Below, one piece after another: positions 2,382-60,977 of a stretch of 64,000 nt of DNA. The DNA lies in assembly GCA_030834985.1 (NCBI GenBank), contig JAUQWV010000002.1, positions 4,435-68,434 of the forward strand. Reading direction: 5' to 3'. The stretch's first letter is position 1. Each line of letters opens with the position of its first letter. The notes under the pieces were generated by a model. That model ran no database searches, was not told the origin of the DNA, and saw nothing but the letters and a program-made list of their open reading frames with translations. A program made the position numbers and the translations under genes. Source of the stretch: Candidatus Dojkabacteria bacterium (lineage in GTDB: Bacteria; Patescibacteriota; Dojkabacteria; J137).

Positions 2382-2387
2382 TAATTT

Positions 2388-4722: not shown

Positions 4723-4782
4723 AAAGCGTATTGACTTTAACCTTTAAGTTTTGTTTAATAGCTTTAAAGGAATTTCTTTAAA

Positions 4783-5880
4783 TTGATAAGAAAAATGGTC
4801 AAACGCTTTACAAAACTTCGCATATATTTTTTGTGTCTAGTGCTTGTATTCGGTTTTGGAATAGAATTTAGTAATCTATTCTCAAATAGATTAAGCGCAG
4901 CTACATTTGCAAAATTTAGTATTAAACCCTCTCGGGTAGAGGCAAGTATTACAGATGTTAACTTTTTAATTAAGGTTGAACCTACTACCGCTGACACCGA
5001 AGATGAGGTTACAGTTACCTTTGATGCAGGCTATACAGTAGATTCTACAGCTTCAAATATAACTGTAAGTACAAGTGGTATTCTTGATTGGGATTCTGAA
5101 TGTGCTAATGCATGGCCAGGTATTGGTTCCCAGGCAACTGGAGTATCATCACAGGCCGTTACTTTTGCATCTAGTGACTTAACAGTTGGCCAAGTTTACT
5201 GTTTTATAATTACAGGTGGTGTTGATAATCCGGCTTCACTTGGTAACTATGTAATTTCGGTAGAAACCTTTGATACGTCAGCTTCGGTAGATATGGGAAT
5301 AATGTCTTTACCGATTATTGATGATGACTCTGTTGTTATAACTGCAAGTGTTGCACCTTTTGTAAGATGCGATGTTGGTACTACAAATGGATTTAGTGAT
5401 AATGCTATTGATTTAGGTGTTTTAAGATACGGTACAGTTACATCTTCAACTGAAGATATTAGAATCGGTTTAGGAACAAATACAGTAAGTGGAGCAGAGG
5501 TTTCGTATACAAGTGAAAACGGAGGCTTATCTTCAATATTGGGATCTTACACTTTAACAGGCGCTGATGCAGAAGATACCTTATCGGCAACTACTTTAAG
5601 TTGTTCAGGAACTGATCCATGTTTTGGTATTTATGCTAGTGGAGTTTCATCTGCTTCAACAGGTTCAATTGCAGCAAATACCAACTTTACAGGATTAACA
5701 GCTACAACAGCAGTGGGACCAATTACAACTGATGCGTATGGTGTTCCTATCGCTTCTTCTACCGGTGCCTTATCAAATGGCGTTATAGAATATAATGTAA
5801 ATGCAACTGCTTCTGAAGAGGCTCCTGCAGCAGTAGATTATACAGATACACTAACATTTACTTGCAAAGCTAATTTGTAA
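4783..5880 (+). CDS. Secreted Ser/Thr/Gly-rich hypothetical protein (signal peptide); C-terminal ~170 aa paralogous to the 7791..8972 protein
   Basis: It has a hydrophobic N-terminus. Its C-terminal segment IDLGVLRYGTVTSS...DYTDTLTFTCKANL aligns with IDLGTLTYNSVTTA...DYSETIIFTVQGKL of the minus-strand gene at 7791..8972. Confidence 0.5.
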   Translation: MIRKMVKRFTKLRIYFLCLVLVFGFGIEFSNLFSNRLSAATFAKFSIKPSRVEASITDVNFLIKVEPTTADTEDEVTVTFDAGYTVDSTASNITVSTSGILDWDSECANAWPGIGSQATGVSSQAVTFASSDLTVGQVYCFIITGGVDNPASLGNYVISVETFDTSASVDMGIMSLPIIDDDSVVITASVAPFVRCDVGTTNGFSDNAIDLGVLRYGTVTSSTEDIRIGLGTNTVSGAEVSYTSENGGLSSILGSYTLTGADAEDTLSATTLSCSGTDPCFGIYASGVSSASTGSIAANTNFTGLTATTAVGPITTDAYGVPIASSTGALSNGVIEYNVNATASEEAPAAVDYTDTLTFTCKANL

Positions 5881-5897
5881 GGTGTTAATCTTTTTTT

Positions 5898-6947
5898 GTG
5901 CGAACAATTCAGACTACAATATTACTCATAGTTGGTGCAATTAGTATATTTACTTTTGTTGCAGTACAAAGTGTTAAAGCACAGCAAACTGGAGTAATAG
6001 TTTCTCCGCCTGTGCTCAATCAAAATCTTACTGGCGGCACCACCTACGATGAGATCATTCATGTATCTAATTTTAAATTAACTGATAATCAGTTTTATAT
6101 AACTACCCGCGATATGATGATTGATGAAAGAGGTAACTTTATATCAGTTACATATCCCGATGGTGATAATAGATCTGAATTTGAAAAGAAAGGATGGTTA
6201 ACAATATCGCCTAATGAATTCTTTTTGAGTTCGGGTGACTCCACAACTTTTACAGCTCACTTTGATTTACCAACTGATTTTCCTACCCAAGGCTATTATT
6301 TTGAAATTGTGATTTCTACTCAAAAGCCAGATTCTCAAGATGGTGTTGTAGGGCTTGTAACAGAAATTGTGTTACCTGTTGGTATAAACTACTTAGGTAA
6401 GGATGATATTAGAAGATTTATTGCGATTGCAGAATTCGAAGCTGCTAACGAATTTGGTGTTTCAAGCTGGTTATATGAATATCCACCAGTTGAATTTAAA
6501 ACTCTTTTACAAAATATTGGTAACGTAAATATTATTCCAACAGGCGAGATTTTTATTTCGCGTGATGAAAATTTTTCTAATGTTGTAACAACTATTCCAT
6601 TTAATCAGAATGGGCTCACAATCTTTAATGGTTCTTTTAGAGAATTTAAAAATGTTTGGGATGGAGGATTTTTAACATTAGATGAAAATAATAGATTAAG
6701 TGTTAATTTTGATAAGATAGATGATTTTCGGTTTGGCCGATACTTTGCTCAATTAAATGTGGTGTGGGACGGCCAAACCGGCAAAGAGTTCGAAAGAAGA
6801 GTAGTAACATTCTGGATTATTCCTTGGAAGCTAATACTTTTAATTCTTGCTATTGTAGTTATAATCACTTATATAATTATTAGAATAAGACGCAAAAAGA
6901 AAAAAAGTGCAGCAATTAATAATAAACAAAAAAATTTAAATGTCTAA
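5898..6947 (+). CDS. Secreted protein with signal peptide and C-terminal TM anchor plus basic tail (IRIRRKKKKS)
   Basis: It has an N-terminal signal-like segment, a C-terminal hydrophobic helix followed by a Lys/Arg cluster, and an architecture shared with the next gene. Confidence 0.5.
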   Translation: MRTIQTTILLIVGAISIFTFVAVQSVKAQQTGVIVSPPVLNQNLTGGTTYDEIIHVSNFKLTDNQFYITTRDMMIDERGNFISVTYPDGDNRSEFEKKGWLTISPNEFFLSSGDSTTFTAHFDLPTDFPTQGYYFEIVISTQKPDSQDGVVGLVTEIVLPVGINYLGKDDIRRFIAIAEFEAANEFGVSSWLYEYPPVEFKTLLQNIGNVNIIPTGEIFISRDENFSNVVTTIPFNQNGLTIFNGSFREFKNVWDGGFLTLDENNRLSVNFDKIDDFRFGRYFAQLNVVWDGQTGKEFERRVVTFWIIPWKLILLILAIVVIITYIIIRIRRKKKKSAAINNKQKNLNV

Positions 6948-7794
6948 TGCATTAACATTTCAACCATCTATTTATGAACTAACACTTAATTCAGAAGAAA
7001 GTGTTAACTTAACAGGTGCTGTTACAAATAATACAAATAAAGATATTACATTTAAAATTTATAATAAAAATGTAAATATTGATTCTGTTGCTAATGGAAA
7101 GTTTGATGTAGTAGATTATGCGCAATTTACGCCGGCCGACTGGATTAAGCTTAATCAAACTGAAATAACAGTAGGAGCAGCTCAAACAAAAGATTTCAGT
7201 TTTACAGTTACGTTGCCCAGATCGGCCGAAATAAGAGATTATTATCCGCTACTTATTTTAGAAAATTATGATTCATCGAATGCTTCTAATGTAGGTGTAA
7301 ATTTTAATATTGCAGTACCTGTATTAGTGAATGTTGCTGATCAACTACAAAGCACAAGAGATTTTATTAAAATTGGTAACTTTGAAAGTGCAAATAGTTT
7401 AGTAACAGATTTAAATTTGAATTTGTCTTTTAGTATTAATAATTTAAGTAAAAATTTTATTAAGCCAACCGGAATTATAAAGATTTATAACAGCGAAAAC
7501 GAATTATTGGGCAACTTACCAAGGGTAAACAATAATTTTAAAACTATGCTGCCTGGACAAAGCTTAAGTGAAAATATTGTTTGGAACGGCGCAGACAATT
7601 CGTTTTCGCTCATTCCTAAATTCGGCAACTATAAAGCAGTGCTGGAAGTTTACACCAGTGCAGGCAGTAATCCTGTAGTAATGGAATCAACATTTTTTGT
7701 TTTGCCGATCTATCATATATTGGGATTAATAACTTTATTAGTTTTAGCAGCAGTATTGGCTTTTAGATTTAAAAGAAAGTCAGCTCGTTCTTAA
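6940..7794 (+). CDS. Hypothetical protein with C-terminal TM anchor and basic tail (RFKRKSARS), no obvious signal peptide
   Basis: The ORF overlaps the upstream gene by 8 nt. Its C-terminal hydrophobic helix plus KR tail mirrors 5898..6947. Confidence 0.45.
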   Translation: MSNALTFQPSIYELTLNSEESVNLTGAVTNNTNKDITFKIYNKNVNIDSVANGKFDVVDYAQFTPADWIKLNQTEITVGAAQTKDFSFTVTLPRSAEIRDYYPLLILENYDSSNASNVGVNFNIAVPVLVNVADQLQSTRDFIKIGNFESANSLVTDLNLNLSFSINNLSKNFIKPTGIIKIYNSENELLGNLPRVNNNFKTMLPGQSLSENIVWNGADNSFSLIPKFGNYKAVLEVYTSAGSNPVVMESTFFVLPIYHILGLITLLVLAAVLAFRFKRKSARS

Positions 7795-8972
7795 AGCTTA
7801 CCCTGAACTGTAAAGATAATAGTTTCTGAATAATCGCTGGCGCTTAAAGTACTTTCATCCATTTTAGCTTTTATATAAAAAGCAGCTCTACCTTCAAAAA
7901 TAGGCTCTCCGGAAGTATTTAAAATTTCTACGCCTCCTGGATTAGATGTAACAGCTCCAACTGTGTTACCTGCTTGATTAAAATTAGTTGTAGCAATTAA
8001 AGGACCTAAAAAAGTTTCTGATATATTAAAATTTTGTAAACCATAACCAAAAACATTATCTAAGTTATCATTTACCGCTAGGATTGTATAATCCACTGAT
8101 GCGCTATAAAGGCCATCGTTAATGCTTGTTCCAAATATAGAAGCACCTGAAGTCATATTTGTTCCAAGATCAAACCAGATTAAATCAGATGCTGTAGTCA
8201 CACTGTTATAAGTTAGTGTTCCTAAGTCTATTAAATAAGGAGAACTTGTTTCGGCTGTACTACCTGCTGTATCTGAAAGATCAATATCAAAAATGATTTG
8301 TGGATATGCAGTAGTTGCACTTTGTGCACTGCCTGGAATACTTTCAGTAAAATCACCGTGCAGTGCTGTAATTCTTATATAATATGTTGTGTTAGGTGTT
8401 AAACTTAAAATATTGAATATTGGATTTTCCCATGAACTTTGAGTTAAATAATCATTAATATCGTGAGTAGCTTCTTCTTCAATTAAAAAAGTTGCACCAT
8501 CTATATACTGCCAGCTATTCCAATTAGAATCAGTAGTTATTTGTACACTATATAAAGTATCTGTAGGATTACTTTGTGGATCAATTTCAAATCTTGCTTT
8601 ATTAAAACATCCTCCTTGTCCACACACTTGTATCATACCGTTTACAATTGAAGGATTATTACAACCTGAGGATCCGCTTGTAGTAGTTTCAAAACAATGC
8701 ACTAACGGAACATTTGCCTGCCATGTATTTACAGCTCCGACTCCTATTCTGTAATGCTCAGAATTAAATCGTATATCGTTTAATATAGTATCTCCTGTTA
8801 AAAGTAGTTTGGAATTTGTTCCTTCTAGATTATTTGAACCTGTTGTTGAAAATGAAAAATCAAGAATTTTTAAATTGTTTGAATCAATATCTTCAGCGTA
8901 TGTGTTTACTGAAAATATTAAACTTACAAATAAAAGTGTAAATAAAATTTTTAAATTAAAATGTTTCTTCAT
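7791..8972 (-). CDS. Secreted hypothetical protein (signal peptide); C-terminal domain paralogous to 4783..5880
   Basis: It has an N-terminal hydrophobic leader (MKKHFNLKILFTLLFVSLIFSVNTYA) and C-terminal similarity to the 4783 protein. Confidence 0.5.
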   Translation of the reverse strand: MKKHFNLKILFTLLFVSLIFSVNTYAEDIDSNNLKILDFSFSTTGSNNLEGTNSKLLLTGDTILNDIRFNSEHYRIGVGAVNTWQANVPLVHCFETTTSGSSGCNNPSIVNGMIQVCGQGGCFNKARFEIDPQSNPTDTLYSVQITTDSNWNSWQYIDGATFLIEEEATHDINDYLTQSSWENPIFNILSLTPNTTYYIRITALHGDFTESIPGSAQSATTAYPQIIFDIDLSDTAGSTAETSSPYLIDLGTLTYNSVTTASDLIWFDLGTNMTSGASIFGTSINDGLYSASVDYTILAVNDNLDNVFGYGLQNFNISETFLGPLIATTNFNQAGNTVGAVTSNPGGVEILNTSGEPIFEGRAAFYIKAKMDESTLSASDYSETIIFTVQGKL

Positions 8973-9083
8973 TTAAAAACATTCTAAGTGTTTATAAGTT
9001 TTGAAGTCAATCAAACCTTATAAATTATTGACACCAATATTTAATTTCTATAAGCTAGTTAGTGAATACTCATTAACGAAAAC

Positions 9084-12000
9084 TTGCACAACTGCTCATT
9101 GTATCTATTAGTGTATGCAATGATCGGCGTTAATATCTTTCGAACAGCGAAAATATTAATAGTACCCGCCTGGGTAATATTTTTATGTCTATTTATTTTT
9201 AATATTCAAAATAATCAAAAGGTTTACGCTGCCGCAAATAGTACAATCACAATTCAAGGAAAAATAGTAGATAAAACAAATGGTACTAACTTAACTTCTA
9301 CAAGCGCCGTATGCATAAATAACGGTGGAGCTGATAGCTGTAATATTAGAGTTAGCATTTATGATGATAACGATGGCGGTGCAAACTTGTTATGGCAGGA
9401 AATTCATGAAAATGTAGAACTAGGCGATACCGGCGGTATCTTCAGTCTATCTTTGAATTCTATTTGCAGCAGCTGGAGTAATCCTACCGGTTCATGTAGC
9501 GGTGATGGAATTTTATGGGGAGCGGCCGATCTTTATATAGAATTAGAAGTAGATACCGATGGCGATGATACTTTTGCTGAAGTATTCCCTGAAGCGCCGG
9601 AAGATCGGCCGCTATTCACCAGTGTTCCATATGCTTACTATGCAGATGTTGCGGGAAGTGTAGCTGCTAATAGTCTAGACTTTAGTGAATTTAAAGATTC
9701 CATGACTTTAGATGCTTCTACAGTAATAGGCCTGGGGGCTTCTGATTTCAATTTTACTTTATTAAATAATGGATCTGGTAATGTAGGAATTAACTTAACT
9801 TCTACCGGAAGCTTTAATGTACAAAGTAATGGGAGTCCTTTTGCAATCTTTAACAGTAGTGGCAGTGCAGATATACTAGGTGATCTATTCGCAGGTAGTG
9901 AAACAGCAGGAATTAAATTAAGCGGAACAACTATTTCTTCTGCATACGCACCTGATGTTGCAGGGCCAAGTGATATACCATTAACAGTTACTAGTACTGG
10001 TCTTTCGGTTCTAACTTTAAATGGACTAGATGGTATAAAGTTAACTGGTGGCAATGTAGCAGTCGGAACAGATCCTACTGCATTTAAATTTGCAGTTGTA
10101 GGTAGTAGTACCGGCCTTGCTCTTGTTAGAAGTACAGGAGCTAATAATGCTGAGCTGTGGATTGATAATGACGCTGGTGGTAATCAATCATCTATAAAGT
10201 TTGCCAATCAAGGAACAATGGCTTGGCAGATAGGAAAGCAAACAGATAATACTTTCTTTATTTACGACAGTGCTCATACCCGTAGTATATTAATTACTGA
10301 TACTTTAGGAAATTTATTATTAGCTCCAGCAGGGGGTACTATAGGTATTGGTACGTTTAGCCCTGCCGCTCTTTTGGATGTTCAGGGCGCTGCTGAAATC
10401 GGCAGTGGCAGTTTTACTTATCCTACAACTCCGGCTCAAGCTGGACTAACTCTTTATAATAGCTCGGCTGTGGGCAGATTAGTTATGAATGATGGTGACG
10501 GATACTTTAATCTATATGTGAATGCTTATAGAGATGCATCCAGTACAAAATACGCTGTCAGTTCTCAAGCTGCTTCGCGAATGCGAATGCATTTAGGTAC
10601 TATTGGTTTTGATGTAGCTGCAGCAGGCACTGCAGGTAATACAGTAACTTGGACAAGCGGCTTGAATATTAACGGTGCGGGTTATATTGGATTAGGAATA
10701 GATGCTACTCAAAAACTTGAGGTAAGTGGTGGAATTCAAATTCAAAATGGTAATATTATGTATTCAAAGAATTCTTCTGGAGGAGTAGAAGCTTTTCTGT
10801 GGCCAAGATGGACAGATAATGCAACTTACTTAAACTACGGATCGGCAGGATTCAATATTAGAAATAGCTCTAGTGTATCAACAATGTTTCTATCGCCAGC
10901 AGGAAATGTAGGAATCGGAACTTCAACAACAACTTACAAACTTAATATTACTGATACTATTTATTCTTCTAAATTACTGGCAACATTAGTAAATAGAACA
11001 GATGCTAAATTGCTGTTATATGATTTTGGAACTGAAAATTGGGCAGGAATTGGTGTTAATGGTAATGGAGATATACAATATAAAACAGGAACTTCAGGTT
11101 CAAACTATTTTGTAATGACAAATGCAGGGCGTTTTGCGGTAGGCCACATTAATCCATGTTCTCAACTTGCAGTTTCAAATACAACAATTCAAGGGGTAAT
11201 TGATGCAGGATGCCCAACTCTGTTTTCAGCAATAAAAGGTACCACCATTGCAAATAATGAAACTTTAACTGGAGTACTTACAAACCAACCTAATTCTAAT
11301 GCTTGGCATGCGTGGGCGGTGGCTACTAGCAATACAGGCGCTTTTGATTGGGAATATCGATTTTTAGGTAATGGTAATGCATTAGCAGATGGAGGATGGT
11401 CGGGAAGTGGTGCAGATGTTGCTGAGGTTTACACCATAAATGGACCTGGAGAACCTGGAGATCTAGTTAGTATTAGTACGGCTGAATTAGCCCAAAACAA
11501 TCCTGGCAAAACATTATTTATGAGTGTTGGAAAGCCGTATGACACTTTGATGACAGGTGTTATATCAACAAACCCTGGTTTAGTTGCAGGGATTGGAGGT
11601 GCCGAAAATATGATTGATCCTAATTTTCAATTACCAGAAAAGCCAGTGGCTTTATCAGGAAGAGTTCCCGTAAAAGTTAATCTTGAAAATGGTCCTATCA
11701 AAGCAGGTGATTTTTTAACATCTTCTTCTACTCCTGGCGTTGCTATGAAAGCAACAAAAACAGGAAGAGTACTTGGGCAGGCAATGGAAGATTACGATGG
11801 AAGCATTAAAATGTCTTTGGGTGTACTAGCAGTTGAAGAAGAAAGATTAAACCTTTCTGCAGAATATTTACCTTTAAACCAACCACAAGAAGGGGTAGGT
11901 AAAATAATGGTGTTTGTTAATTTGTCTTGGTATATACCAGAAATACTTGAAGGAGCAACCTTAGCTGAAAATTGCTTAGATAATTCTACTGATTGTACTT

Positions 12001-12389
12001 TAGATAGTAATTATCCTAGTATTGTTAACATTAATGATAGCTCAATAGATGCAGATAAATTACATTTAGCATTATCGTTAACGGACTTAATTTCAATACA
12101 AGAAAATAGTATTGTGATATCGGGTAACCTAATTGCTGATATCGTTCAAGTTAAACAAATCAATATATCTTCCAATCGAGTTGGCAGCTTTACAATAAAT
12201 TCAGAGCAAACAAGTTATCAAGTAGATATTACGGGTATTACAGAAAGCTCAAAAGTTATCCTAACTCCAAAATCACAAGTTGTAAGCGGAACTACTTATT
12301 GGGTAGAAAATTATACCGATAGGTTTATAGTAAAGCTTAGTACACCTGCAACAAACTCACTAACCTTTGATTACATAGTGTTGAATTAG
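9084..12389 (+). CDS. Very large secreted protein (1101 aa) with Gly-rich (G)xIGIGT-type repeats reminiscent of tail-fibre/adhesin repeats
   Basis: A signal-like segment is followed by a long ORF with repeated motifs GNVGIGTST, GTIGIGTFSP, GYIGLGIDATQKLEV. The true start may be the internal Met near 9120. Confidence 0.5.
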   Translation: MHNCSLYLLVYAMIGVNIFRTAKILIVPAWVIFLCLFIFNIQNNQKVYAAANSTITIQGKIVDKTNGTNLTSTSAVCINNGGADSCNIRVSIYDDNDGGANLLWQEIHENVELGDTGGIFSLSLNSICSSWSNPTGSCSGDGILWGAADLYIELEVDTDGDDTFAEVFPEAPEDRPLFTSVPYAYYADVAGSVAANSLDFSEFKDSMTLDASTVIGLGASDFNFTLLNNGSGNVGINLTSTGSFNVQSNGSPFAIFNSSGSADILGDLFAGSETAGIKLSGTTISSAYAPDVAGPSDIPLTVTSTGLSVLTLNGLDGIKLTGGNVAVGTDPTAFKFAVVGSSTGLALVRSTGANNAELWIDNDAGGNQSSIKFANQGTMAWQIGKQTDNTFFIYDSAHTRSILITDTLGNLLLAPAGGTIGIGTFSPAALLDVQGAAEIGSGSFTYPTTPAQAGLTLYNSSAVGRLVMNDGDGYFNLYVNAYRDASSTKYAVSSQAASRMRMHLGTIGFDVAAAGTAGNTVTWTSGLNINGAGYIGLGIDATQKLEVSGGIQIQNGNIMYSKNSSGGVEAFLWPRWTDNATYLNYGSAGFNIRNSSSVSTMFLSPAGNVGIGTSTTTYKLNITDTIYSSKLLATLVNRTDAKLLLYDFGTENWAGIGVNGNGDIQYKTGTSGSNYFVMTNAGRFAVGHINPCSQLAVSNTTIQGVIDAGCPTLFSAIKGTTIANNETLTGVLTNQPNSNAWHAWAVATSNTGAFDWEYRFLGNGNALADGGWSGSGADVAEVYTINGPGEPGDLVSISTAELAQNNPGKTLFMSVGKPYDTLMTGVISTNPGLVAGIGGAENMIDPNFQLPEKPVALSGRVPVKVNLENGPIKAGDFLTSSSTPGVAMKATKTGRVLGQAMEDYDGSIKMSLGVLAVEEERLNLSAEYLPLNQPQEGVGKIMVFVNLSWYIPEILEGATLAENCLDNSTDCTLDSNYPSIVNINDSSIDADKLHLALSLTDLISIQENSIVISGNLIADIVQVKQINISSNRVGSFTINSEQTSYQVDITGITESSKVILTPKSQVVSGTTYWVENYTDRFIVKLSTPATNSLTFDYIVLN

Positions 12390-15632: not shown

Positions 15633-16238
15633 ATGAAATCACACTGTAAAGTTTTAGGATTTTTCTCTTTCTTAGTATTTGCAGTGTTAGCGGTTTTCCC
15701 ATTCAGTAGAGTTTTGGCAGTAACAATGAATCCAAGCAGCGGTAACTATTACCCAGGTACCCAGCTTACAATTAATGTTACCGCTGCCCCAACTGGCGCT
15801 AATTCCAATGCAGTAGCAATAAGATTAGCAGTAACAGGAGCTACAGTAGTATCTTTTGTTCCAGTTTCTGGAGGTGCATGGGTTGGGGCTACAGCTGATT
15901 GTGCAGGTTCATCGCATTATACATCTACAACAGTTTGCTCAAGTTTAGCCAAAGTTAGCACTATTGTAGCTGGCGAAACTTTAGGTACATTAGTAATTCA
16001 ACTTCCTGCAACTCCGGGAACAGTTACCATAGAAAGAACTGCTGGTAACGAATATTCAAACGGTTTAACTTCATTTCCAAGCACAGGTACTGCTGCATCA
16101 TTTACAGTAAGTACATCTGGAGTACTACCCAATACAGCAATAACAGACACCCACGGATTAATAATAGTTATGGTAAGTATCTTACTTGTAGCTACCGGGT
16201 TTGTTCTTATAAAACTAAAACCATTAAATCAAAATTAA
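15633..16238 (+). CDS. Secreted/anchored hypothetical protein; N-terminal domain paralogous to the next gene
   Basis: It has a signal peptide, a shared motif DCAGSSHYTSTTVCSSLAKVSTIVAGETLGTLVIQ (vs DCNNGESYFTADSVCLSLAKTTHITQDELIGVLSVK in the next gene), and a C-terminal TM (LIIVMVSILLVATGFVLIKL). Confidence 0.5.
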   Translation: MKSHCKVLGFFSFLVFAVLAVFPFSRVLAVTMNPSSGNYYPGTQLTINVTAAPTGANSNAVAIRLAVTGATVVSFVPVSGGAWVGATADCAGSSHYTSTTVCSSLAKVSTIVAGETLGTLVIQLPATPGTVTIERTAGNEYSNGLTSFPSTGTAASFTVSTSGVLPNTAITDTHGLIIVMVSILLVATGFVLIKLKPLNQN

Positions 16239-16248
16239 TCTTACTTTT

Positions 16249-18231
16249 ATGATAAAAAAAGCCTTTCTTTTTTCGATTGGATTATTGGTACTTGTACCAG
16301 GAGTTCTGGTAAATGCATTAAGAATTGATCCAGTAAGTGGTCTTTTTGACGCTGAAACAGTAGTTGAGGCTAAATTGTATGCAACTCCTTTTGCTGACGA
16401 TCAGAATGGATTAAGCGTTATGTTAAGCATTACTGGAGGTGAGTTTGTAGACTTCGTTCCTGAAAGTAATCCTGAATGGATGGCATTAACTAAAGATTGT
16501 AATAATGGCGAAAGCTACTTTACTGCAGATTCAGTTTGCTTGTCATTAGCAAAAACTACTCATATTACCCAAGATGAATTGATTGGTGTATTAAGTGTTA
16601 AAGTTAGCGGAACTGAACAAACAAAGATAGTTAAAGTAGAAGGTACTAAATATACAAATGGAGTAGACACAGTCGAGAGCTTAGGCGATGCTGCGTTGTA
16701 TTTCACACCACAAATGTTATTAGATGTTCCGGTATCAGCTCCAACAGATGAGGAGCAAGTTACACCATCTTCAGACACAGCGTTATTAGTACTAGGTTTT
16801 ATCCTGTTAGTTGTTATAGCTCTTTTAGTAGGAGGCTACATTATTTTAAGAAAAAGAAATGTAAATTTAAGAAGATTAAGTTCTTCAGGAAAAGTAGTCG
16901 CAATTATTATGTCACTTGTAGTTTTAGGAGTATCTACGGTAGCAGTTGGAATAGCTGTAACAAATAATCAGGCTCCTGAAGAAAGTGCTGCTATGGGTGG
17001 AGGTGGCGGAGGAGGAGGTGGTGGTGCTCAAATTTCTTTCTGTAATACAGGAGCAGGTTGTAGTGTTGATATTTCTACTTGTCCTTCAAATATGGAATTA
17101 GATTCTTCAAAGTCAACATGCAGAATATCAGTTAGTGGTGGCTCTGTAAGAAACGGAATATGTTGTAAACCTAAAGTGACTGATCCTTGCCCAGGAAAAG
17201 GCTACTGTTCTGATCCTAAAAGTGGAAATACATGTACCCCGTCCAATCCAGCAAACTCTGTAAGTACATCCTTGTGTAGCTATGGTGCAAAATGCTGTCC
17301 TGTAGCTCAGGGATCTGGCAATGAAGGTGGTGGAAATCAAGGCCCAGGTAATGAAGGAGGTGGTGATCAGGGAGGTGGAGATACAGGAGGTAGTTCATCT
17401 GGAGGCGGGCAAACATCAACACCTAGAAAAGCTGTATGCGGTGAATCATGTAATACAGATGCTGATTGTGCAACTTCAGGATTTGGCGTAACCGTAGTAT
17501 GTAATGCAAATAAAAAGTGTGCAAGCCCTGCTTGTCCAAATGATACTGAACCTGGCACTTTGTGTGGTTGTAAAACAGCGGCTGGAAAGTGCGGTGATAG
17601 ATGCGGAATCTGGAGTGATGGCTTCCAGCCGCTATGTGGTGACGGTATTAGTACATGTAGCTGGATAAATGGTCCAACCTGTGGTGGTAATAATAAAACT
17701 TATTGTTTACCAATAACAGTGACAGGTGGTTTCCAAAAAAGAAATTGTACACAAGAATCTGGATATCAATATATTGTTGACGCACAAGGTAATGTTGTTA
17801 CAACTCAAGCTCAGATTAGTCAGTTGTGTAACCCTGTAACTCCAAAGACAACTTGTTACAGATGTACATTATCCACTTCTGACGCCAACACTTGCGAATC
17901 TCAGCAAGTTGATGGAACTAGTTGTCCATCAGGCTGGACTACGAATTCTAACTGTGCTCAAGCTTCCGGAGGCAGTTGCTCGACTGATACAATTCCTATT
18001 GATCCAGATGAACCAGCAGCAGAATGCGGAAATATAGACTCAGACGGTGATGGCAAATTAACAGTTATTGACTTTGCAAGCTTTGCACAGAATTACAATA
18101 AGAGTTGTTCGAATTCAGGCTTTACACCTAACTCTTGTGGTAGTAGAGATACTAATAATGACGGTAAAATCGATATTGTAGATTTTGCTAGTTTTGCCAA
18201 TAGGTACGATAAACCATCGTGTGCAATTTAA
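16249..18231 (+). CDS. Membrane-spanning Cys-rich secreted protein with poly-Gly linker and C-terminal tandem dockerin-like Ca-binding repeats
   Basis: A signal peptide is followed by the domain shared with 15633, two TM helices and G11 (MGGGGGGGGGGAQ). Then comes a >350-aa Cys-rich region (about 60 Cys) and a C-terminus DSDGDGKLTVIDFASFAQNY...DTNNDGKIDIVDFASFANRY matching the DxNxDGxIxxxD dockerin/EF-hand-like loop twice. Confidence 0.55.
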   Translation: MIKKAFLFSIGLLVLVPGVLVNALRIDPVSGLFDAETVVEAKLYATPFADDQNGLSVMLSITGGEFVDFVPESNPEWMALTKDCNNGESYFTADSVCLSLAKTTHITQDELIGVLSVKVSGTEQTKIVKVEGTKYTNGVDTVESLGDAALYFTPQMLLDVPVSAPTDEEQVTPSSDTALLVLGFILLVVIALLVGGYIILRKRNVNLRRLSSSGKVVAIIMSLVVLGVSTVAVGIAVTNNQAPEESAAMGGGGGGGGGGAQISFCNTGAGCSVDISTCPSNMELDSSKSTCRISVSGGSVRNGICCKPKVTDPCPGKGYCSDPKSGNTCTPSNPANSVSTSLCSYGAKCCPVAQGSGNEGGGNQGPGNEGGGDQGGGDTGGSSSGGGQTSTPRKAVCGESCNTDADCATSGFGVTVVCNANKKCASPACPNDTEPGTLCGCKTAAGKCGDRCGIWSDGFQPLCGDGISTCSWINGPTCGGNNKTYCLPITVTGGFQKRNCTQESGYQYIVDAQGNVVTTQAQISQLCNPVTPKTTCYRCTLSTSDANTCESQQVDGTSCPSGWTTNSNCAQASGGSCSTDTIPIDPDEPAAECGNIDSDGDGKLTVIDFASFAQNYNKSCSNSGFTPNSCGSRDTNNDGKIDIVDFASFANRYDKPSCAI

Positions 18232-38001: not shown

Positions 38002-38117
38002 TACAAGCTTTAGAATTAATATATATACCGGCTAATATACCACAAAGTATTCAACTCGATTAATATATCTGATATGATTTTCTAGAAAGAGTTTTTCAGA
38101 TTTAATATTTCTTCTAA

Positions 38118-39203: not shown

Positions 39204-39250
39204 ATATCTGCTAAACTAAATTAAATTTCTTATTTTTTAATAAGCCTACA

Positions 39251-39814: not shown

Positions 39815-39854
39815 TGGGAATATATGAATTAGAGCAGCTTATAGCCAATTCGCT

Positions 39855-41039: not shown

Positions 41040-41049
41040 AGTTGTTTAC

Positions 41050-42075: not shown

Positions 42076-42164
42076 AGTGCAAACATAATATTTAAATTTC
42101 ACTTCATTCTAAATCTTTATGTGTATAATGGTCAATATAAAGATAGTTCTTAACGTTATTAAAC

Positions 42165-42824: not shown

Positions 42825-42858
42825 GTATATTATATTAATATATTAGTAATTTAAATTT

Positions 42859-44878: not shown

Positions 44879-44886
44879 CAAATAAT

Positions 44887-53199: not shown

Positions 53200-53208
53200 C
53201 AAATACTG

Positions 53209-54453: not shown

Positions 54454-54630
54454 AGAAGCAGCAAGGTAAAAGGCGATTTTAATAACGATAAAATTGTAAA
54501 TTTATCTGACTTAAGTATATTAGCTACATATTGGAATCAAAATTCAAGTGTTGCTGATGCAAACAACGATAATGTTGTAAATATATCTGATCTAAGCATC
54601 TTGGCTCAAAACTGGATGCAGGGTTTTTAA
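54454..54630 (+). pseudogene. Orphan 3' gene fragment encoding only a tandem dockerin-like module (no start codon; frame opens after a TGA)
   Basis: It translates to KGDFNNDKIVNLSDLSILATYWNQNSSVADANNDNVVNISDLSILAQNWMQGF*. It is about 80% DNA-identical to the 3' ends of the NHL genes at 57235-57393 and 60820-60977. Confidence 0.6.
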
Positions 54631-54633
54631 ATA

Positions 54634-57393
54634 ATGAAATACATAAAAGTCATAATAACTTTTATTTTTATAGTAATTTTAAGTGCGGCGCCGCTTAATC
54701 TTTATCCAAATTTATTAGCGGAGAGCGCCGTGCGTGGAGTTCCTGGTGATGGCTGGGCCGATGTAATAATCGGCCAGCCTGATTTTTCAGAAGTCTCACC
54801 GTATTCGGTTGTTTCAACTATGATGCATCTTCCTCACGGAGTCTATATTGATACTAATAATCCACTAGATAATAAGATGTATGTTTCAGATGCAGGGAAT
54901 AACAGAATATTAGGTTATAACCTTGCAGAGTGTTTGGAATCAGAAACAAATCCTTTAAATTGTGAACCAAACATAATAATAGGACAGCCAAGTGCGAATA
55001 CATCTGCATGTAATGGAGATTCTGCATATCAAAATTACCCAATACGTGCGCCGGCAACTGCATCTACACTTTGTTTATTGCAAGAAGATCAGCTTTCAAT
55101 TTCAGAAGGCGGCTCTGGCGCAAGTATGGCGGTTGATAGTCAAGGTAATTTATATTTCCCTGACTTTTGGAATAATAGGGTCTTAAAATATAATGCTCCC
55201 CTTTCAGAAGACACAAGTGCCGGTAAAGGAGACGCAATTGCAGATGAAGTCTGGGGGCAGGCTGATTTTACAGGAATACTTTGTAATCGTGGACTTGCGC
55301 AGCCAGCTGCTAATACTTTATGTTTTAGCTGGGGTAATTCAAATAACTGGACAGCAGGTGTAGATATAGATAGTCAGGATAATTTATGGATAGTTGATAG
55401 TGGTAATAATAGAGTTTTAAGATTTAATAATACTTCCGGTTCAATTAGTAAAACTCCAAGCCTAGTTTTAGGACAATCAAATTATACAAGTGCTACATCT
55501 GGAAGTACATTAAGCAAGCTTAGAGATCCTAATGCTGTTAGAGTTAACGATGATGGTGTAGTTTACGTTTCAGAAAGATACAATAATAGAATTCTTAAAT
55601 TCAGTCCACCTCTAACTAATGGAATGAGCGGGTCAACTTTTGGTTCAGGGTTTAATGCGCCATCAGGAGTAGATTTTGACCCCACAGAACCAGACAGCTT
55701 ATGGATATCTAATACTAACGATAATTCATTAGAATTATGGAGTGAAAATTCAGGTACTCTTGTTAGAACATTAGGCGGTGCAGATGGAAATATCATAGGA
55801 GATGTTACGGGCTCTATTGGAGTGGATTCAGAAGGTAATGTTTATGCAGCAACGGGATTAGGTAATTACAATAATACAGTAATTATATTTGAAAAAGATG
55901 GTGATGATGTTATTCCTTCCACTACTTTAACTCAGCCAACATCAGTAGGTAATTTTAAGGATATTAATCAATTAGCTGTTGGCAGAGGGTTGGCTGTTAC
56001 TGAAGATCAAGTTATTGTTGCAGATCAAGATAGGATAATGTTCTGGAATACTCCAAATGGTATAACAGATCTATATACAGGAAAGCCGGCAGATGGAACG
56101 GTTAGCAGGCCTACGGAAGACTACGGACCTTGCTGTATGTATCTTAAAACTGACGAAGATGGACACTTATACACATCTTTTGGCACGCATAATCTGCCGG
56201 CTAGAATTGCGGTATACAATCTGCCGCTTACACAGGGTGAAATACCATTTAAGGAAATCGCATTTCCTTTGAATCTTTTAGGCGGAGGAACAATACAAGC
56301 TGGACCATCTTATTCTGACGGTATTCCAGGCTTTTTGCCCACACCACATTCGGAGTTCTTATGGGTTTCGACAAGTATGTATAACAGAGTAGTAAGAATA
56401 CGTGATCCTTTAGGTGTTAGTCCGGTAGTTGATTATGTAATAGGGCAAACTAACGCTACTAATAACCAATGTAATCGAGGAGGCAACCCTGTAAGTGGAG
56501 CAACAAGTGTGACTATATGTAATGCAGGTGCATTAGCGCTTGATCGGTTTGGAAACTTTTATCTAGCTGATCACTGGCTAGAAGCATATGGCAATAATAG
56601 AACTTTAATATACTTAAACGGGACCTTGCCTACCGATAACACATCAGTTATTTATAATATTATTGCACCGGACGTAATTGTTCAGAATATTGCTATGTGG
56701 GAGCCAGCATTTGATTCGCAAAACCGGATGGTAGTAGGTTTTAATCCTTATTGGACAGGAACACCTTTTCCGATAGAAGATAGATGGTTTCCTGCGGTAT
56801 ATGAAGATATCATTGATTCAGGCAGTGGAACTCCGGATTATTTCCTAAAAGATTACCATTCTATGGTATTTAACGCAGCTTTTGATGAAGATGATAACCT
56901 TTATATTACAGATTTAAATCGAGGTAGAGTTCTAATATACTTGGCGCCACTTGCCGATAATAATCCCCAACTAACGCAAGTCACTCCAGTACCATCAGTA
57001 GTTTCTGATAGAACCCCTAATTATACTTTCCATACAGATAAAGCAGGTACTTTAACGTATGGAGGTGATTGTTCAAGTTCAGTTACAAACGCAGTAATAG
57101 GAAACAACACTATTACATTTAATACTTTATCTATTGGTATTCACTCTAACTGTACAATAAGGCTTACAGATAGTCAGGATTATCAAAGTAACATCTTAAA
57201 TGTAAACACATTTACTATTAGCTTTAAATCCCGGGGAGATTTCAACAGCGATGGCAATATTAACTTATCTGATCTAAGTATACTTGCTACATATTGGATG
57301 AAATCTAATACAGCTGCAGATGCTAACAATGATAATTCTGTAAATATATCTGACTTAAGCATTCTAGCTCAATACTGGATGCAAAATTTTTAA
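54634..57393 (+). CDS. Secreted NHL-repeat beta-propeller protein (919 aa) with C-terminal tandem dockerin-like module
   Basis: It has a signal peptide and repeated NHL-type blades (GNNRILGYN, NNRVLKYN, GNNRVLRFN, NNRILKFS). The C-terminus is RGDFNSDGNINLSDLSILATYW...DANNDNSVNISDLSILAQYWMQNF. Confidence 0.7.
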   Translation: MKYIKVIITFIFIVILSAAPLNLYPNLLAESAVRGVPGDGWADVIIGQPDFSEVSPYSVVSTMMHLPHGVYIDTNNPLDNKMYVSDAGNNRILGYNLAECLESETNPLNCEPNIIIGQPSANTSACNGDSAYQNYPIRAPATASTLCLLQEDQLSISEGGSGASMAVDSQGNLYFPDFWNNRVLKYNAPLSEDTSAGKGDAIADEVWGQADFTGILCNRGLAQPAANTLCFSWGNSNNWTAGVDIDSQDNLWIVDSGNNRVLRFNNTSGSISKTPSLVLGQSNYTSATSGSTLSKLRDPNAVRVNDDGVVYVSERYNNRILKFSPPLTNGMSGSTFGSGFNAPSGVDFDPTEPDSLWISNTNDNSLELWSENSGTLVRTLGGADGNIIGDVTGSIGVDSEGNVYAATGLGNYNNTVIIFEKDGDDVIPSTTLTQPTSVGNFKDINQLAVGRGLAVTEDQVIVADQDRIMFWNTPNGITDLYTGKPADGTVSRPTEDYGPCCMYLKTDEDGHLYTSFGTHNLPARIAVYNLPLTQGEIPFKEIAFPLNLLGGGTIQAGPSYSDGIPGFLPTPHSEFLWVSTSMYNRVVRIRDPLGVSPVVDYVIGQTNATNNQCNRGGNPVSGATSVTICNAGALALDRFGNFYLADHWLEAYGNNRTLIYLNGTLPTDNTSVIYNIIAPDVIVQNIAMWEPAFDSQNRMVVGFNPYWTGTPFPIEDRWFPAVYEDIIDSGSGTPDYFLKDYHSMVFNAAFDEDDNLYITDLNRGRVLIYLAPLADNNPQLTQVTPVPSVVSDRTPNYTFHTDKAGTLTYGGDCSSSVTNAVIGNNTITFNTLSIGIHSNCTIRLTDSQDYQSNILNVNTFTISFKSRGDFNSDGNINLSDLSILATYWMKSNTAADANNDNSVNISDLSILAQYWMQNF

Positions 57394-57436: not shown

Positions 57437-58198
57437 ATGTTTTCACTGCAAGATAAAGTTGCAATAGTTACTGGCGCTGCTTCTGGGCTAGGTAAGGAGA
57501 TTGCTCTTTTGTTCGCCAGACAAGGTGCAAAGGTTGTTGCTGCTGACTATAACAAAGAAGCATTAGATCAATTCAAAAGTCAGATCTCTACAGACTTGAC
57601 AATTTCACCAGTAGCAGGTGATATTTCTAATTTAGAAGATGTTAAAAATATATATGCTCATGCTCAAAGTGAATTCGGCGGCGTTGATATTGTTGTAAAT
57701 AATGCTGGAGTTATGGATAAGTTAGAACCTATTGGAGACTTATCAGACGAAGTATACGATAAAGTTATAAACACAAACCTAAAAGGAACTTTTTATATGA
57801 TGAGAGAAGCTGTAAAGATATTTGAAAAGAAAAGAGCCGGCACAATTGTGAACATCGCATCAATCGCTGGACTTGAAGGTGGAAGAGCAGGAGCAGCTTA
57901 TACTGCCAGCAAACATGGAATCATCGGTTTAACAAAGAATACAGCATACTTTTATACAAAGGCAAATATTAGAGTGAATGTAATCGCTCCTGGTGCAATG
58001 AAAACAAATATAATGAGCGGTAATATCGATTTATCGAATATAAGTGATTTAGTTAAGTCAATGTTGTCTACACAGGGTAATCAAAAGGTGGCAGATCCAT
58101 CGGAAGTTGCAAATGTAGCATTATTTTTAGCTTCAGATGAAGCAAGCTTTGTAAACGGAGCTGTAGTAGTAGCAGATGGAGGTTGGACGACATACTAA
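57437..58198 (+). CDS. Short-chain dehydrogenase/reductase (SDR) family oxidoreductase
   Basis: It has VAIVTGAASGLGKEIA (TGxxxGxG), NNAGV and the catalytic YTASK (YxxxK) with an upstream Ser. Confidence 0.85.
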   Translation: MFSLQDKVAIVTGAASGLGKEIALLFARQGAKVVAADYNKEALDQFKSQISTDLTISPVAGDISNLEDVKNIYAHAQSEFGGVDIVVNNAGVMDKLEPIGDLSDEVYDKVINTNLKGTFYMMREAVKIFEKKRAGTIVNIASIAGLEGGRAGAAYTASKHGIIGLTKNTAYFYTKANIRVNVIAPGAMKTNIMSGNIDLSNISDLVKSMLSTQGNQKVADPSEVANVALFLASDEASFVNGAVVVADGGWTTY

Positions 58199-58205
58199 AC
58201 TTTTT

Positions 58206-60977
58206 ATGTTGAATAAAAGACTATGTGCTACAGCGTTTATATTGCTTGTACTAATTAGTGCATTTTCTTTTTATACCAATATTAATGCAGCCGCAGTAAG
58301 AGGCATATCGGGTGATTTTTGGGCTGATACAATTTTAGGCAAAAGAGATTTTACCGAAATGGGATTAAACAAGATTGTTGATTATGAAGTTTTTAATCCA
58401 GGTGGAGTAACTATTGATAATAGTGTTGAAGACGGCAGAATGTATGTATGGGATTCTGGAAATAATAGGATTTTAGGTTTGAATCTAGGAGATTTAGATG
58501 GCTCACCATACCATGCTGATATTGTAATTGGCCAGCCGTCTGGAACAGATTGGGGTGCTTGTAATCAAGATGGTAGCTTTCAAAATGATCCCAATTCATC
58601 TATTCCCAATGCTTCTACATTATGCGGTATTCCCGATTACACGCACACAACTGGAGAACATAAAACTTTCTCTAATATGTTTGTGGATAGCTCTGGCAAT
58701 TTATATGTTCCGGATATATTTAATAATAGGGTTTTAAAATACAATTCTCCATTTACAACAGATACAATAGCAGATGAAGTTTGGGGACAACCTAACTTTA
58801 GTGGGCAAAGATGTAATTTAACTACACAAAGATTTGAGTGGCCACCGCCGGCGCCAACAGCAGCTTCGATTTGTTTTTCGTATTGGGATGGCGCCGGCGG
58901 TGGCGGTGCAGTTATTGATTCAGAAGGGAATCTTTGGATAGCTGATTCACTTAATAATCGTGTTCTAAGATTCCCTTCAGTAGAAGGCACGATAAGTAAA
59001 ACTGCAAATCTAGTGCTAGGTCAATCTAACTTTACAACAGGCCCAGAGGCAGGAGGCAGTGCAATAAATAAATTATCTGCACCTCAATCCGTAAGATTTG
59101 ATGATTCAGGCAAGTTATATGTTGCAGACTCCGGTAATAATAGGGTTATAGTCTTTACTCCTCCTTTTACAACAGGAATGAATGGGAGTGTTTTCTTGTC
59201 ATCGTCGTCATTTGAAGAAGCAGTTCAAGGTTTAGAGTTTAGTATAGATAAAACCAGACTATATACACTTTCTAATCCAGGCCCAGTTGTTGATGAATGG
59301 GATTTAGCAGGAAATTATATTCAAGAAGTTGGCGGCGGATACAATTGGGGCGGAGGCAGTATTGGAGTAGATCTAAATGACAATGTTTATTTAAGTGACT
59401 ATATTTATGGTCAGCACGTTTACCAGTTTGTAAGACAGATAAATGATTCTTACGAGATAGGTATTACTTTTTTCCATGATGAAGAAGGAATAGGTTTACG
59501 AATGTTTAATGAAGTAGCGGCAGATAGATCTATTGCGCCTGCAGGCATAAAAACAATAGATGATAGGGTTTATGTTGCAGATGGAAGATTATTATTTTGG
59601 GATAATAAAGATGAATTAACAAATGGACAAGCTCCAGATGGTTATTTAAACTCAACTTCTTTTACAGACTTACCTAATCAAAATTACAGATATGATTCAC
59701 AAATTCAGGTTGATGAACAAGGACGGTTATGGGCCGCCGCCAACAACTTTTACGAAGGTGGCAGAGTTGATGTTTTCTTTCCGCCAATAAATTCTGAAGA
59801 TACCCCAGATTTAACAATAAATGGCACAATACCTCTTGTTGGCGGCGGCTCTATAACAATTGGAATGGATGGCGAAAACTCAGTAGGTTTTAACGGTATA
59901 GAAGTTTCAGATGATGCTCAATATTTATGGATTACAGAAACGAATAGACACCGGGTAATAAGAATTAAAGATCCATTAACTAACCCTGTAGTTGATGTAA
60001 TACTTGGCCAAGTAAACTCTACTGGTAAAACATGCAATCGTGGTTTAAGTGGTTATGATTGGGATGCAAATCCTACTTACTTATGTTTACCGTCATACTT
60101 AAGTTTTGATAATTTTGGCAACTTATATGTTAGCGATCACTTCTTTGAATGGGATGGGAATTATAGACTTTTAATGTTTACTGCAAATACATTTCCTGAT
60201 GATTTAACTTCAGTTTTATATGCTCCGGCAGCAAAAAAGGGCTTTCCTGCTGCCAGTTTTGAGGTTACATTTGATGAGGAAAACACAATGGTATTGGGTA
60301 CTAATCCATATACAGGTAATAGATATTTAAGATACTATAATAATCCGCAGAATTTTAATCCTTCTAATCCATTTGATACAGCGTTTAACACTTATGTAGG
60401 AACGCTCAATGATTTTTACGGCTGGCCGATTGGATTAGAATTTGATGAAGAAGGTAACTTATATGTAGGAGATGGTAATAGGGGAAAAATTTTGATATAT
60501 GACCGACCTTTTAATACATCTAATACACTACCTGTTTTAACACAAGTTACTCCAGTGCCAACACCGACTATAGATTCAACTCCAGACTATACCTTTAATT
60601 CTACAAAAGCAGGGACAATAAGCTATGGTGGTAGTTGTTCAAGCACAACGACTATAGCAATCACTGGTAATAATACTATCACCTTCAATCATTTAGCTGA
60701 TGGAACTTATTCTAACTGTACAATAACAGTAAGTGATAGCCTTGATAATAGCAGTAATGTGTTAAATGTTTCAGCTTTTACAATAACCGCAAGAACTCAT
60801 TTTCTTAGGACAAAAGGAGATTTTAATACAAATGGGAAAATTGATTTGTCAGATTTAAGCATACTTGCTACGTACTGGCTACAAGCCAATGCTATTGCAG
60901 ATGCTAATCTTGACGGTGTTACAAATATATCTGATCTTAGCATTTTGGCTACCTATTGGCTGCAAAACTTTTCTTAA
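58206..60977 (+). CDS. Secreted NHL-repeat beta-propeller protein (paralog of 54634..57393) with C-terminal tandem dockerin-like module
   Basis: It has a signal peptide (MLNKRLCATAFILLVLISAF) and NHL blades (GNNRILGLN, NNRVLKYN, NNRVLRFP, GNNRVIVF). The C-terminus is KGDFNTNGKIDLSDLSILATYW...DANLDGVTNISDLSILATYWLQNFS. The start is taken at the ATG at 58206. Confidence 0.7.
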   Translation: MLNKRLCATAFILLVLISAFSFYTNINAAAVRGISGDFWADTILGKRDFTEMGLNKIVDYEVFNPGGVTIDNSVEDGRMYVWDSGNNRILGLNLGDLDGSPYHADIVIGQPSGTDWGACNQDGSFQNDPNSSIPNASTLCGIPDYTHTTGEHKTFSNMFVDSSGNLYVPDIFNNRVLKYNSPFTTDTIADEVWGQPNFSGQRCNLTTQRFEWPPPAPTAASICFSYWDGAGGGGAVIDSEGNLWIADSLNNRVLRFPSVEGTISKTANLVLGQSNFTTGPEAGGSAINKLSAPQSVRFDDSGKLYVADSGNNRVIVFTPPFTTGMNGSVFLSSSSFEEAVQGLEFSIDKTRLYTLSNPGPVVDEWDLAGNYIQEVGGGYNWGGGSIGVDLNDNVYLSDYIYGQHVYQFVRQINDSYEIGITFFHDEEGIGLRMFNEVAADRSIAPAGIKTIDDRVYVADGRLLFWDNKDELTNGQAPDGYLNSTSFTDLPNQNYRYDSQIQVDEQGRLWAAANNFYEGGRVDVFFPPINSEDTPDLTINGTIPLVGGGSITIGMDGENSVGFNGIEVSDDAQYLWITETNRHRVIRIKDPLTNPVVDVILGQVNSTGKTCNRGLSGYDWDANPTYLCLPSYLSFDNFGNLYVSDHFFEWDGNYRLLMFTANTFPDDLTSVLYAPAAKKGFPAASFEVTFDEENTMVLGTNPYTGNRYLRYYNNPQNFNPSNPFDTAFNTYVGTLNDFYGWPIGLEFDEEGNLYVGDGNRGKILIYDRPFNTSNTLPVLTQVTPVPTPTIDSTPDYTFNSTKAGTISYGGSCSSTTTIAITGNNTITFNHLADGTYSNCTITVSDSLDNSSNVLNVSAFTITARTHFLRTKGDFNTNGKIDLSDLSILATYWLQANAIADANLDGVTNISDLSILATYWLQNFS

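Follow-up and report, generated by a model that had tools for sequence, protein, structure and literature searches.

A Cys-bracketed dockerin-type F-hand pair and a predicted cohesin-like domain encoded together at a Candidatus Dojkabacteria surface-protein locus

Cellulosomes are classically built up by high-affinity cohesin-dockerin pairs, and to our knowledge the role of such pairs beyond cellulose degradation is largely obscure. The Patescibacteria (Candidate Phyla Radiation, CPR) are tiny, mostly uncultivated episymbionts that attach to their hosts via surface proteins. The locus described here raises the question of what a dockerin-like segment is doing at the C terminus of a Cys-rich membrane protein of such an organism, Candidatus Dojkabacteria, and what it might dock onto. 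It lies in a 64-kb stretch of DNA with a GC content of 34.7%, the whole of which is referred to as the window. A first-pass annotation had flagged positions 17998 to 18228 as a dockerin-like double Ca-binding module and had pointed out that a dockerin implies a cohesin-bearing partner. The coordinates proved right and the segment is in frame: it encodes residues 584 to 660, the final 77 residues of an open reading frame (ORF) at 16249..18231 on the + strand, the product of which is the focal protein of this study. An identical copy of this 660-residue protein is present on the Logan contig SRR25397370_1962, and the PNPase sequence of the window is a 100% match to MBE0573641.1 from a Candidatus Dojkabacteria bacterium.

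The segment contains two units of 28 and 29 residues, conserved across the family, so that the two Ca loops, each with its helix, that had been proposed for the C terminus are upheld. Each unit has the layout C-G-x-x-[12-residue DxDxDG loop]-[DFASFAxxY helix]-C. All six frames of the window were searched with a strict F-hand pattern, D.[DNS].[DNS]G.[IVLMTA]..[IVLMF]D, which gave two matches only, both in this ORF and 37 codons apart. Seven family members were aligned over the module, and 22 of the 76 positions, the four Cys residues among them, do not vary; relatives are 40-77% identical within the module, and clustering at 50% identity leaves more than 30 clusters that contain it. The consensus of 36 family units reads C(-4)-G-x-x-D1-x-N/D3-G-D5-G-K-L-T/D9-x-I/V-D12-F-A-x-F-A-x-x-Y-N-K-x-C24, with D12 kept in 35, Cys(-4) in 34, and Cys24 in 28 of them. 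Gly, Pro, Ser, and Cys abound ahead of both loops, and a weak AlphaFold2 (AF2) model of the module (predicted local distance difference test [pLDDT], 64) has helices at positions 23 to 37 and 60 to 69 only, each after a loop, with no entering helix. The anatomy of a type I dockerin is present: two F-hands, Asp or Asn at loop positions 1, 3, 5, 9, and 12 (Asp at 12), and a helix after each loop, the last at low AF2 confidence. Canonical EF-hands have Glu at loop position 12 as well as an entering helix, and the module has neither; because Asp stands at position 12 and no helix lies ahead of either loop, the pattern is that of a dockerin F-hand, not of an EF-hand. We conclude that the segment probably encodes a dockerin-type Ca-binding F-hand pair.

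The module was compared with existing models of both families. The Pfam Dockerin_1 hidden Markov model (HMM; PF00404, gathering threshold 22.9 bits) was matched by all seven family modules at E≤0.01, with a best E of 1e-7 and both repeats covered (profile positions 3 to 52 of 57); the isolated focal module scored 24.6 to 24.9 bits. The sole NCBIfam match was NF041540, named "GC-type dockerin," which likewise matched both repeats in 7/7 modules (profile positions 6 to 64 of 67; best E, 1.3e-5) but with scores under its curated cutoff of 29 bits (21.5 bits for the module and 17 for the full protein); a literature search for "GC-type dockerin" found no paper describing this family. A profile search of the PDB with the module returned a mix of EF-hand proteins and dockerins, the latter being 2y3n_B (E 0.0019), 4wi0_B, 4u3s_B, and 5nrm_B, so sequence scores alone do not separate the two. 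A reading of the module as thrombospondin type 3 or FG-GAP repeats was rejected, there being no TSP_3 match, an FG-GAP_3 E value of 0.15, and helices after the loops. The module is dockerin-type by anatomy and borderline by HMM, with its fold unconfirmed.

The window also holds clear dockerins. A looser form of the F-hand pattern found three more loop pairs, at the C termini of two NHL-propeller proteins and in an orphan stretch, all of which had been assigned to the same module type as the focal segment. This holds in part: the three are clear Dockerin_1 modules, but of a different subtype, Cys-free and with a linker 10 residues shorter. In an hhalign comparison of the focal module family with these dockerins both repeats aligned, with a probability of 60.5% and an E of 8.4e-5. 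The three Cys-free dockerins are mutually 65-71% identical. The NHL proteins, which score 55 to 57 bits for NHL, are 41% identical to each other and have signal-like N termini. The orphan shares 72% identity with the dockerin of NHL protein 1, whose gene starts 7 bp downstream; most likely a gene remnant, it is probably what is left of a lost paralogue.

The description of the host protein as membrane spanning and Cys rich was borne out by a signal peptide, two hydrophobic segments, and 40 Cys residues, 38 of them beyond residue 250. It belongs to a small group: only 10 relatives were found among 5.8e9 proteins, and when 185,579 species genomes were scanned with a pattern, 8 loci came up, from about 5 genomes of Patescibacteria. 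The full-length relatives share one layout, in which a signal peptide, an N-terminal domain (N-domain), a transmembrane hairpin, a variable Cys/Gly-rich segment, a Cys-rich core, and a small Cys module precede the double repeat. The strain protein P0002 is identical to the focal protein at 242 of 248 positions over residues 1 to 248 and at 265 of 268 over residues 393 to 660, against 46 of 169 columns over residues 249 to 392, and the exposed variable Cys-rich segment looks like a cassette swapped between strains. Searches of Pfam and of PDB sequences with the Cys-rich core gave no match. A P0009-type paralogue (L012, 3482-5815) has this core too, with an IPETA-type sorting signal at its end and with neither an N-domain nor a dockerin-like module.

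If the C-terminal module is a dockerin, a cohesin would be its expected partner, and a candidate was found at the other end of the same protein. The AF2 model of the N-domain, built from a 21-sequence alignment, is all-β and of high confidence (pLDDT, 91.9; predicted TM score, 0.83). A Foldseek search of the PDB with this model gave cohesins of several species as the 8 best matches and as most of the top 30 (TM score, 0.52 to 0.63; E, 1e-4 to 5e-3). They include C. acetobutylicum CohA2, Ruminococcus flavefaciens ScaB Coh3 and ScaE, C. thermocellum OlpA, and a noncellulosomal cohesin from A. fulgidus; the entries 6kgf, 5aoz, 3ul4, 2zf9, and 2xdh mostly match with TM scores of 0.59 to 0.63 and E values of 1e-4 to 2e-3, 2zf9 and 2xdh both at a TM score of 0.61. 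Matches of the Ig type did not exceed a TM score of 0.36. The N-domain is thus predicted to adopt the cohesin β-sandwich fold.

A paralogous domain is encoded next door. The gene immediately upstream specifies a 201-residue protein that is 30-31% identical to the N-terminal ~200 residues of the focal protein (E, 1e-18 to 1e-20) with one single-residue gap, and 15 columns are invariant in all eight aligned family sequences, these two proteins included. Behind its one predicted cohesin-fold domain this short protein has the layout of an LPxTG-type substrate (motif, hydrophobic segment, basic tail), which makes it a putative sortase substrate; its orthologues P0011-P0023 all carry LP[NDE]T[AGS], a transmembrane segment, and KLKP. 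The sorting-signal model TIGR01167 gave 12.9 bits, under its cutoff of 15.9. The equivalent motif of the long proteins has degenerated, suggesting that the short form came first and was extended into the long one. No further copies of the N-domain were found within the window, nor any Pfam cohesin in its other surface proteins. The implied cohesin-bearing partner is present as a predicted fold, in the N-domain of the same protein and in the adjacent upstream product, but not as a Pfam Cohesin match, and the dockerin interpretation as a whole is supported in part: the search yielded both a dockerin HMM match and a cohesin-like candidate partner.

The gene order def-cca-short-long-pnp is kept in four loci of related Patescibacteria, namely L002, L003, L006, and L005, the last with a tandem duplication of the long gene; a divergent relative, P0008, is without the short gene. 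A scan for promoters and terminators around the gene pair gave nothing above the shuffled expectation. The N-domain family itself is much wider. An exhaustive profile search gave 271 cluster representatives at E≤1e-3, 120 of them at E≤1e-10, and mostly of about 200 residues. In a set of 170 family sequences, a sorting-type signal is present in 62 and Cys-bracketed F-hands in 36 to 42; 30 of the 42 carriers found with the looser pattern have two F-hand units. Pfam Gram_pos_anchor matched 3 of 146 N-domain relatives. The N-domain also occurs singly beside Amidase_2, Peptidase_M4, β-helix, and Kazal domains.

The order of the domains in the carriers varies. With N for the N-domain, TM for a transmembrane segment, and cF for a Cys-bracketed F-hand, the arrangement N-TM-TM-X-cF-cF is found in 22 proteins, cF-N-cF in 5 (P0105, for example), cF-N-N-cF in 2, and N-N-cF-cF in 1, in the last case behind Kazal domains. 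In P0083, which has a β-helix enzyme-like domain, the pattern finds one unit, and cF-N-cF can be made out by eye; some other apparent singles are of the same kind. The relatives with single F-hands flanking one or two cohesin-fold domains are P0105, P0113, P0084, P0097, P0083, P0169, P0032, and P0031, sometimes with the arrangement placed behind β-helix or Kazal domains. Single F-hands on either side of the fold domain mean that a dockerin-like pair can be split by an inserted putative partner domain, and because the separated units retain both Cys residues, every repeat probably has a disulfide of its own to close it. The repeated fusion of N-domain and F-hands in varied orders argues, in the manner of a Rosetta stone, that the modules work together, with the reservation that the set was gathered via the N-domain. 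A homologue search with the module profile gave a single extra match, a fragmentary one; a metagenome scan with the same profile gave no confirmed locus; and a cargo search in 13 loci returned the orthologues themselves and PNPase false positives only.

Our preferred reading, to which we give a probability of about 0.5, is that the C-terminal module docks in a Ca2+-dependent manner onto a cohesin-fold domain, as a noncellulosomal variant of the cohesin-dockerin interaction. The signal peptide and the transmembrane hairpin, oriented by the positive-inside rule, would place both the N-domain and the C-terminal module outside the cell. Each loop would bind one Ca2+ through positions 1, 3, 5, 7 (backbone), 9, and 12, as in dockerins, and disulfides C593-C620 and C630-C658 would staple each loop to its helix. 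The helix pair may then dock on one sheet of a cohesin-fold domain, belonging to the sortase-signal upstream protein (which would act like an anchoring scaffoldin of the ScaE type), to the N-domain of neighboring copies of the focal protein, or to both. The outcome would be a small, noncellulolytic surface assembly. The first-pass annotation had been cautious in calling such an assembly not necessarily cellulolytic, and rightly so, the source being a CPR bacterium and no glycoside hydrolase being attached. Sortases and extracytoplasmic disulfide machinery are frequent in CPR genomes (PMC6744442), and a dockerin-domain envelope protein, SEML1_0315, is reportedly essential in the cultivated saccharibacterium Southlakia epibionticum, the only genetically tractable member of the Patescibacteria (PMC10633639).

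A number of results weigh against this reading. On the side of the module, the Dockerin_1 check that had been proposed for it comes out borderline: the isolated segment lies just over the cutoff, the full protein, at 19.4 bits, under it. EF-hand models score about equally: EF-hand_1 (PF00036) gave 25.9 bits for the isolated module (threshold, 25.4) and 18.9 for the full protein, EF-hand_7 (PF13499) gave 25.8 to 26.1 bits (threshold, 30), and the top PDB sequence match is an EF-hand protein, Entamoeba CaBP1 (1jfj; E, 2.6e-6). A Foldseek search with the weak module model was not significant, its best match being the type II dockerin 5g5d_B (E, 0.58; TM score, 0.36). On the side of the N-domain, sandwiches of the YcnI type also match, with a TM score of about 0.5. 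Pfam Cohesin (PF00963) is absent from the upstream and full focal proteins (E≤1), from the N-terminal 184 residues (E≤0.1), and from 146 relatives, and PDB sequence searches with two N-domain profiles, one of 146 members, found no cohesin and nothing meaningful. When the N-domain family was compared by hhalign with CipA cohesins of C. thermocellum (three sequences, checked against 1anu, 1aoh, and 3kcp), the probability was 0.2%. There being no sequence link to cohesins, the N-domain is cohesin-like by predicted fold only and not a demonstrable member of PF00963. As to the setting, a search of the window ORFs for a TLxTC-type sortase motif found no sortase gene, and cargo bearing the Cys-bracketed module with no N-domain was not found, except for one fragmentary Dojkabacteria protein.

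Several of these results lend weight to the first alternative, in which the module has no cohesin-type protein partner and serves as a Ca-dependent structural cap or as an end that binds ligands, such as host glycans or anionic polymers of the wall; the N-domain would be an unrelated stalk, adhesin, or pilin-like sandwich, and the likeness to dockerins would reflect the widespread DxDxDG motif. Module HMM scores that are borderline and shared with EF-hand models, a module fold search that is not significant, and an N-domain with no sequence link to cohesins are all as this alternative would have them. The N-domain also stands singly beside enzymes and other domains in the manner of a general surface module, and its family consists for the most part of small proteins with a sortase signal, much like pilins and adhesins. 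Yet a high-confidence model of the N-domain finds mainly cohesins as fold matches, the recurrent fusion of N-domain and Cys-bracketed F-hand pairs, in varying orders, suggests that the two are functionally coupled, and two repeats with Asp-12 and no entering helix amount to the anatomy of a dockerin. We regard a partnerless cap as possible but rather unlikely.

A second alternative keeps docking but exchanges the partners: the cohesin-fold domains would receive the Cys-free dockerins of the secreted NHL proteins, and the Cys-bracketed module would bind something else, on another cell or on the host surface. The NHL proteins do have signal-like N termini and clear Dockerin_1 modules, the window offers no Pfam cohesin or additional N-domain copy to receive them, and the upstream protein resembles ScaE in its signal, single domain, and sortase signal. 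The NHL-dockerin genes are, however, 36 kb away from the gene pair, with no co-occurrence or synteny shown, and it is to Cys-bracketed repeats, not to those of the NHL type, that the N-domain is repeatedly fused; we therefore consider this exchange improbable. A canonical EF-hand pair, serving as a calcium sensor or buffer, is a very remote prospect. The EF-hand_1 score of the isolated module and the CaBP1 match speak for it, but the EF-hand_1 alignments span the loop and exit helix alone (profile positions 10 to 26 of 29). Asp rather than Glu at position 12 in 35/36 units, the lack of a predicted entering helix, and a module that would be extracellular and disulfide-bracketed all stand against it, and the matches of the module model to EF-hand folds have root mean square deviations of mostly ~8 to 17 Å. 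A chance or low-complexity match, conceivable for short motifs in a compositionally biased host protein, is effectively refuted by the two strict matches being the only ones in six frames of 64 kb, adjacent and in frame, by the 22/76 invariant positions, and by the more than 30 clusters.

Docking of the module onto a cohesin-fold domain can be set beside several known systems. Like the type I dockerins (PF00404) of C. thermocellum and Acetivibrio cellulolyticus, the focal module is a C-terminal stretch of some 60 to 70 residues in a secreted protein, with tandem F-hands and hydrophobic residues at helix positions 13, 16, and 20; unlike them, it has Cys-bracketed repeats (positions -4 and +24), a longer linker, and a borderline score, and it is carried by a membrane-anchored Cys-rich protein, not an enzyme, in a CPR host. 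ScaE of Ruminococcus flavefaciens is sortase anchored and has a single type III cohesin (PDB 2zf9). The upstream 201-residue protein resembles it in combining a signal peptide, one cohesin-fold domain (by prediction, with the TM score to 2zf9 given above), and an LPxTG-type signal, and differs in that its domain is smaller and lacks detectable sequence similarity to cohesins. EF-hand pairs such as CaBP1 (1jfj) and the polcalcin Phl p 7 share with the module two DxDxDG loops ~37 residues apart and significant profile matches; the module differs in having no entering helices, Asp at position 12, Cys brackets, and a presumed extracellular location.

Noncellulosomal cohesin-dockerin systems have been described from archaea and bacteria, ANME archaea included (PMC9012536, citing Peer et al. 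2009). As in those of A. fulgidus (2xdh) and the ANME archaea, the locus described here combines both kinds of module without a cellulosome, including proteins that carry both; in contrast to those systems, which Pfam recognizes, its cohesin-fold domain escapes Pfam, and its F-hands have Cys brackets and may sit on opposite sides of the fold domain. SEML1_0315 of Southlakia epibionticum is also a dockerin-annotated envelope protein of Patescibacteria, from a different phylum-level lineage. Dockerin annotations in the CPR and noncellulosomal cohesin-dockerin pairs are thus already known. The novelty lies in the Cys-bracketed F-hand unit, pairs of which can be parted by another domain, in a family of predicted cohesin fold that sequence models miss, and in the compact two-gene arrangement.

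The coordinates of the gene pair and of the window's other dockerin modules are collected in Table 1. Elsewhere in the window, positions 204-12389 hold a cluster of predicted surface proteins: a 725-residue protein with Pur_ac_phosph_N/FN3 repeats, signal- or transmembrane-segment-containing proteins of 365, 349, 284, and 393 residues, and one protein of 1101 residues. The 284-residue protein has a weak WxLIP_PGBD match, the remainder are without a Pfam match, and two ORFs within the cluster, at 2388-4722, appear by eye to be ABC-transporter-like. A nearly complete lower-glycolysis block at 36472-47987 comprises iPGM, PFK, PGK, GAPDH, TIM, a DeoC/LacD-type aldolase, lactate/malate dehydrogenase, enolase, and pyruvate kinase. 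Between the pyruvate kinase gene and a gene that by eye resembles polyprenyl-phosphate glycosyl-phosphate transferases lie 1.5 kb (48049-49451, - strand) with small acidic ORFs of 83 to 91 residues only and no Rfam match; apart from tRNA-Glu(CTC), at 53207-53281, the window has no RNA gene. The ORF at 61128-64000, of at least 957 residues, runs past the window end; unusually, it combines a response-regulator receiver domain at the N terminus (33.4 bits) with a subthreshold Big_1 Ig-like match near its end (26.1 bits against 34.9).

Table 1. Features of the gene pair and of the Cys-free dockerin modules (positions in the window; residue numbers are those of the focal protein)
Feature	Position	Strand	Basis or detail
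Upstream gene, 201-residue protein	15633..16238	+	10 bp upstream of focal ORF
Upstream protein, signal peptide	15633-15719	+	Sequence
Upstream protein, N-domain paralogue, predicted cohesin fold	15720-16112	+	Paralogy to focal N-domain
Upstream protein, LPNTA sorting motif	16125-16139	+	Sequence
Upstream protein, 19-residue hydrophobic segment, then KLKPLNQN tail	16155-16211 (segment)	+	Sequence
Focal gene, 660-residue Cys-rich surface protein anchored by a membrane hairpin	16249..18231	+	ORF; 10 relatives
Predicted signal peptide, residues 1-23, ending ...VNA	16249..16317	+	Sequence; putative cleavage
N-domain, residues 24-154, all-β, predicted cohesin-like fold	16318..16710	+	AF2 and Foldseek; conserved Cys84/Cys97
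Transmembrane hairpin: segment 1, residues 178-200; basic loop RKRNVNLRRLSSSGK; segment 2, residues 216-237	16780..16959	+	Sequence; family-conserved; probable topology from positive-inside rule
Gly10 run, then variable Cys/Gly-rich segment, residues 250-392	16996..17424	+	Sequence, family alignment
Conserved Cys-rich core, residues 397-486, CGESCNxDxDC...CGDRCGIWSDGFQPLCGDGISTCSW	17437..17706	+	24 invariant columns, mostly Cys/Gly
Small Cys module TCYRCT...NTCES...SCPxGW...C...GGxC	17851..17979	+	Repeated also in paralogues
F-hand repeat 1, residues 593-620, CGNIDSDGDGKLTVIDFASFAQNYNKSC	18025..18108	+	Cys593; Ca loop DSDGDGKLTVID (18037-18072); helix FASFAQNYNKS; Cys620
Inter-repeat linker SNSGFTPNS	18109..18135	+	~10 residues longer than linkers of NHL dockerins
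F-hand repeat 2, residues 630-658, CGSRDTNNDGKIDIVDFASFANRYDKPSC	18136..18222	+	Cys630; Ca loop DTNNDGKIDIVD (18148-18183); helix FASFANRYDKPS; Cys658
Orphan Dockerin_1 stretch	54454..54627	+	34.3 bits; stop codon directly upstream, without start codon
Cys-free Dockerin_1 module, end of NHL protein 1 (gene 54634..57393)	57217..57390	+	Dockerin_1 36.2 bits; NHL 56.8 bits
Cys-free Dockerin_1 module, end of NHL protein 2 (gene 58176..60977)	60801..60974	+	Dockerin_1 28.4 bits

The locus is a compact two-gene candidate pair, a putatively wall-anchored cohesin-fold protein next to a membrane-anchored protein in which a predicted cohesin-fold domain is joined to a dockerin-type module. A speculative extension, to which we give low odds, takes the F-hands to be paired in all cases, even where the fold domain separates them: the cohesin-fold domain and the disulfide-bracketed F-hand would form a self-complementary cassette specific to Dojkabacteria-like Patescibacteria, with modules that assemble head to tail or clasp each other to build a surface lattice or attachment structure stabilized by Ca2+ and disulfides, and with a strain-variable Cys-rich tip for host recognition in an episymbiotic life. 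Because cohesin-like partners can escape sequence models, censuses of "orphan" dockerins may underestimate the number of complete systems.

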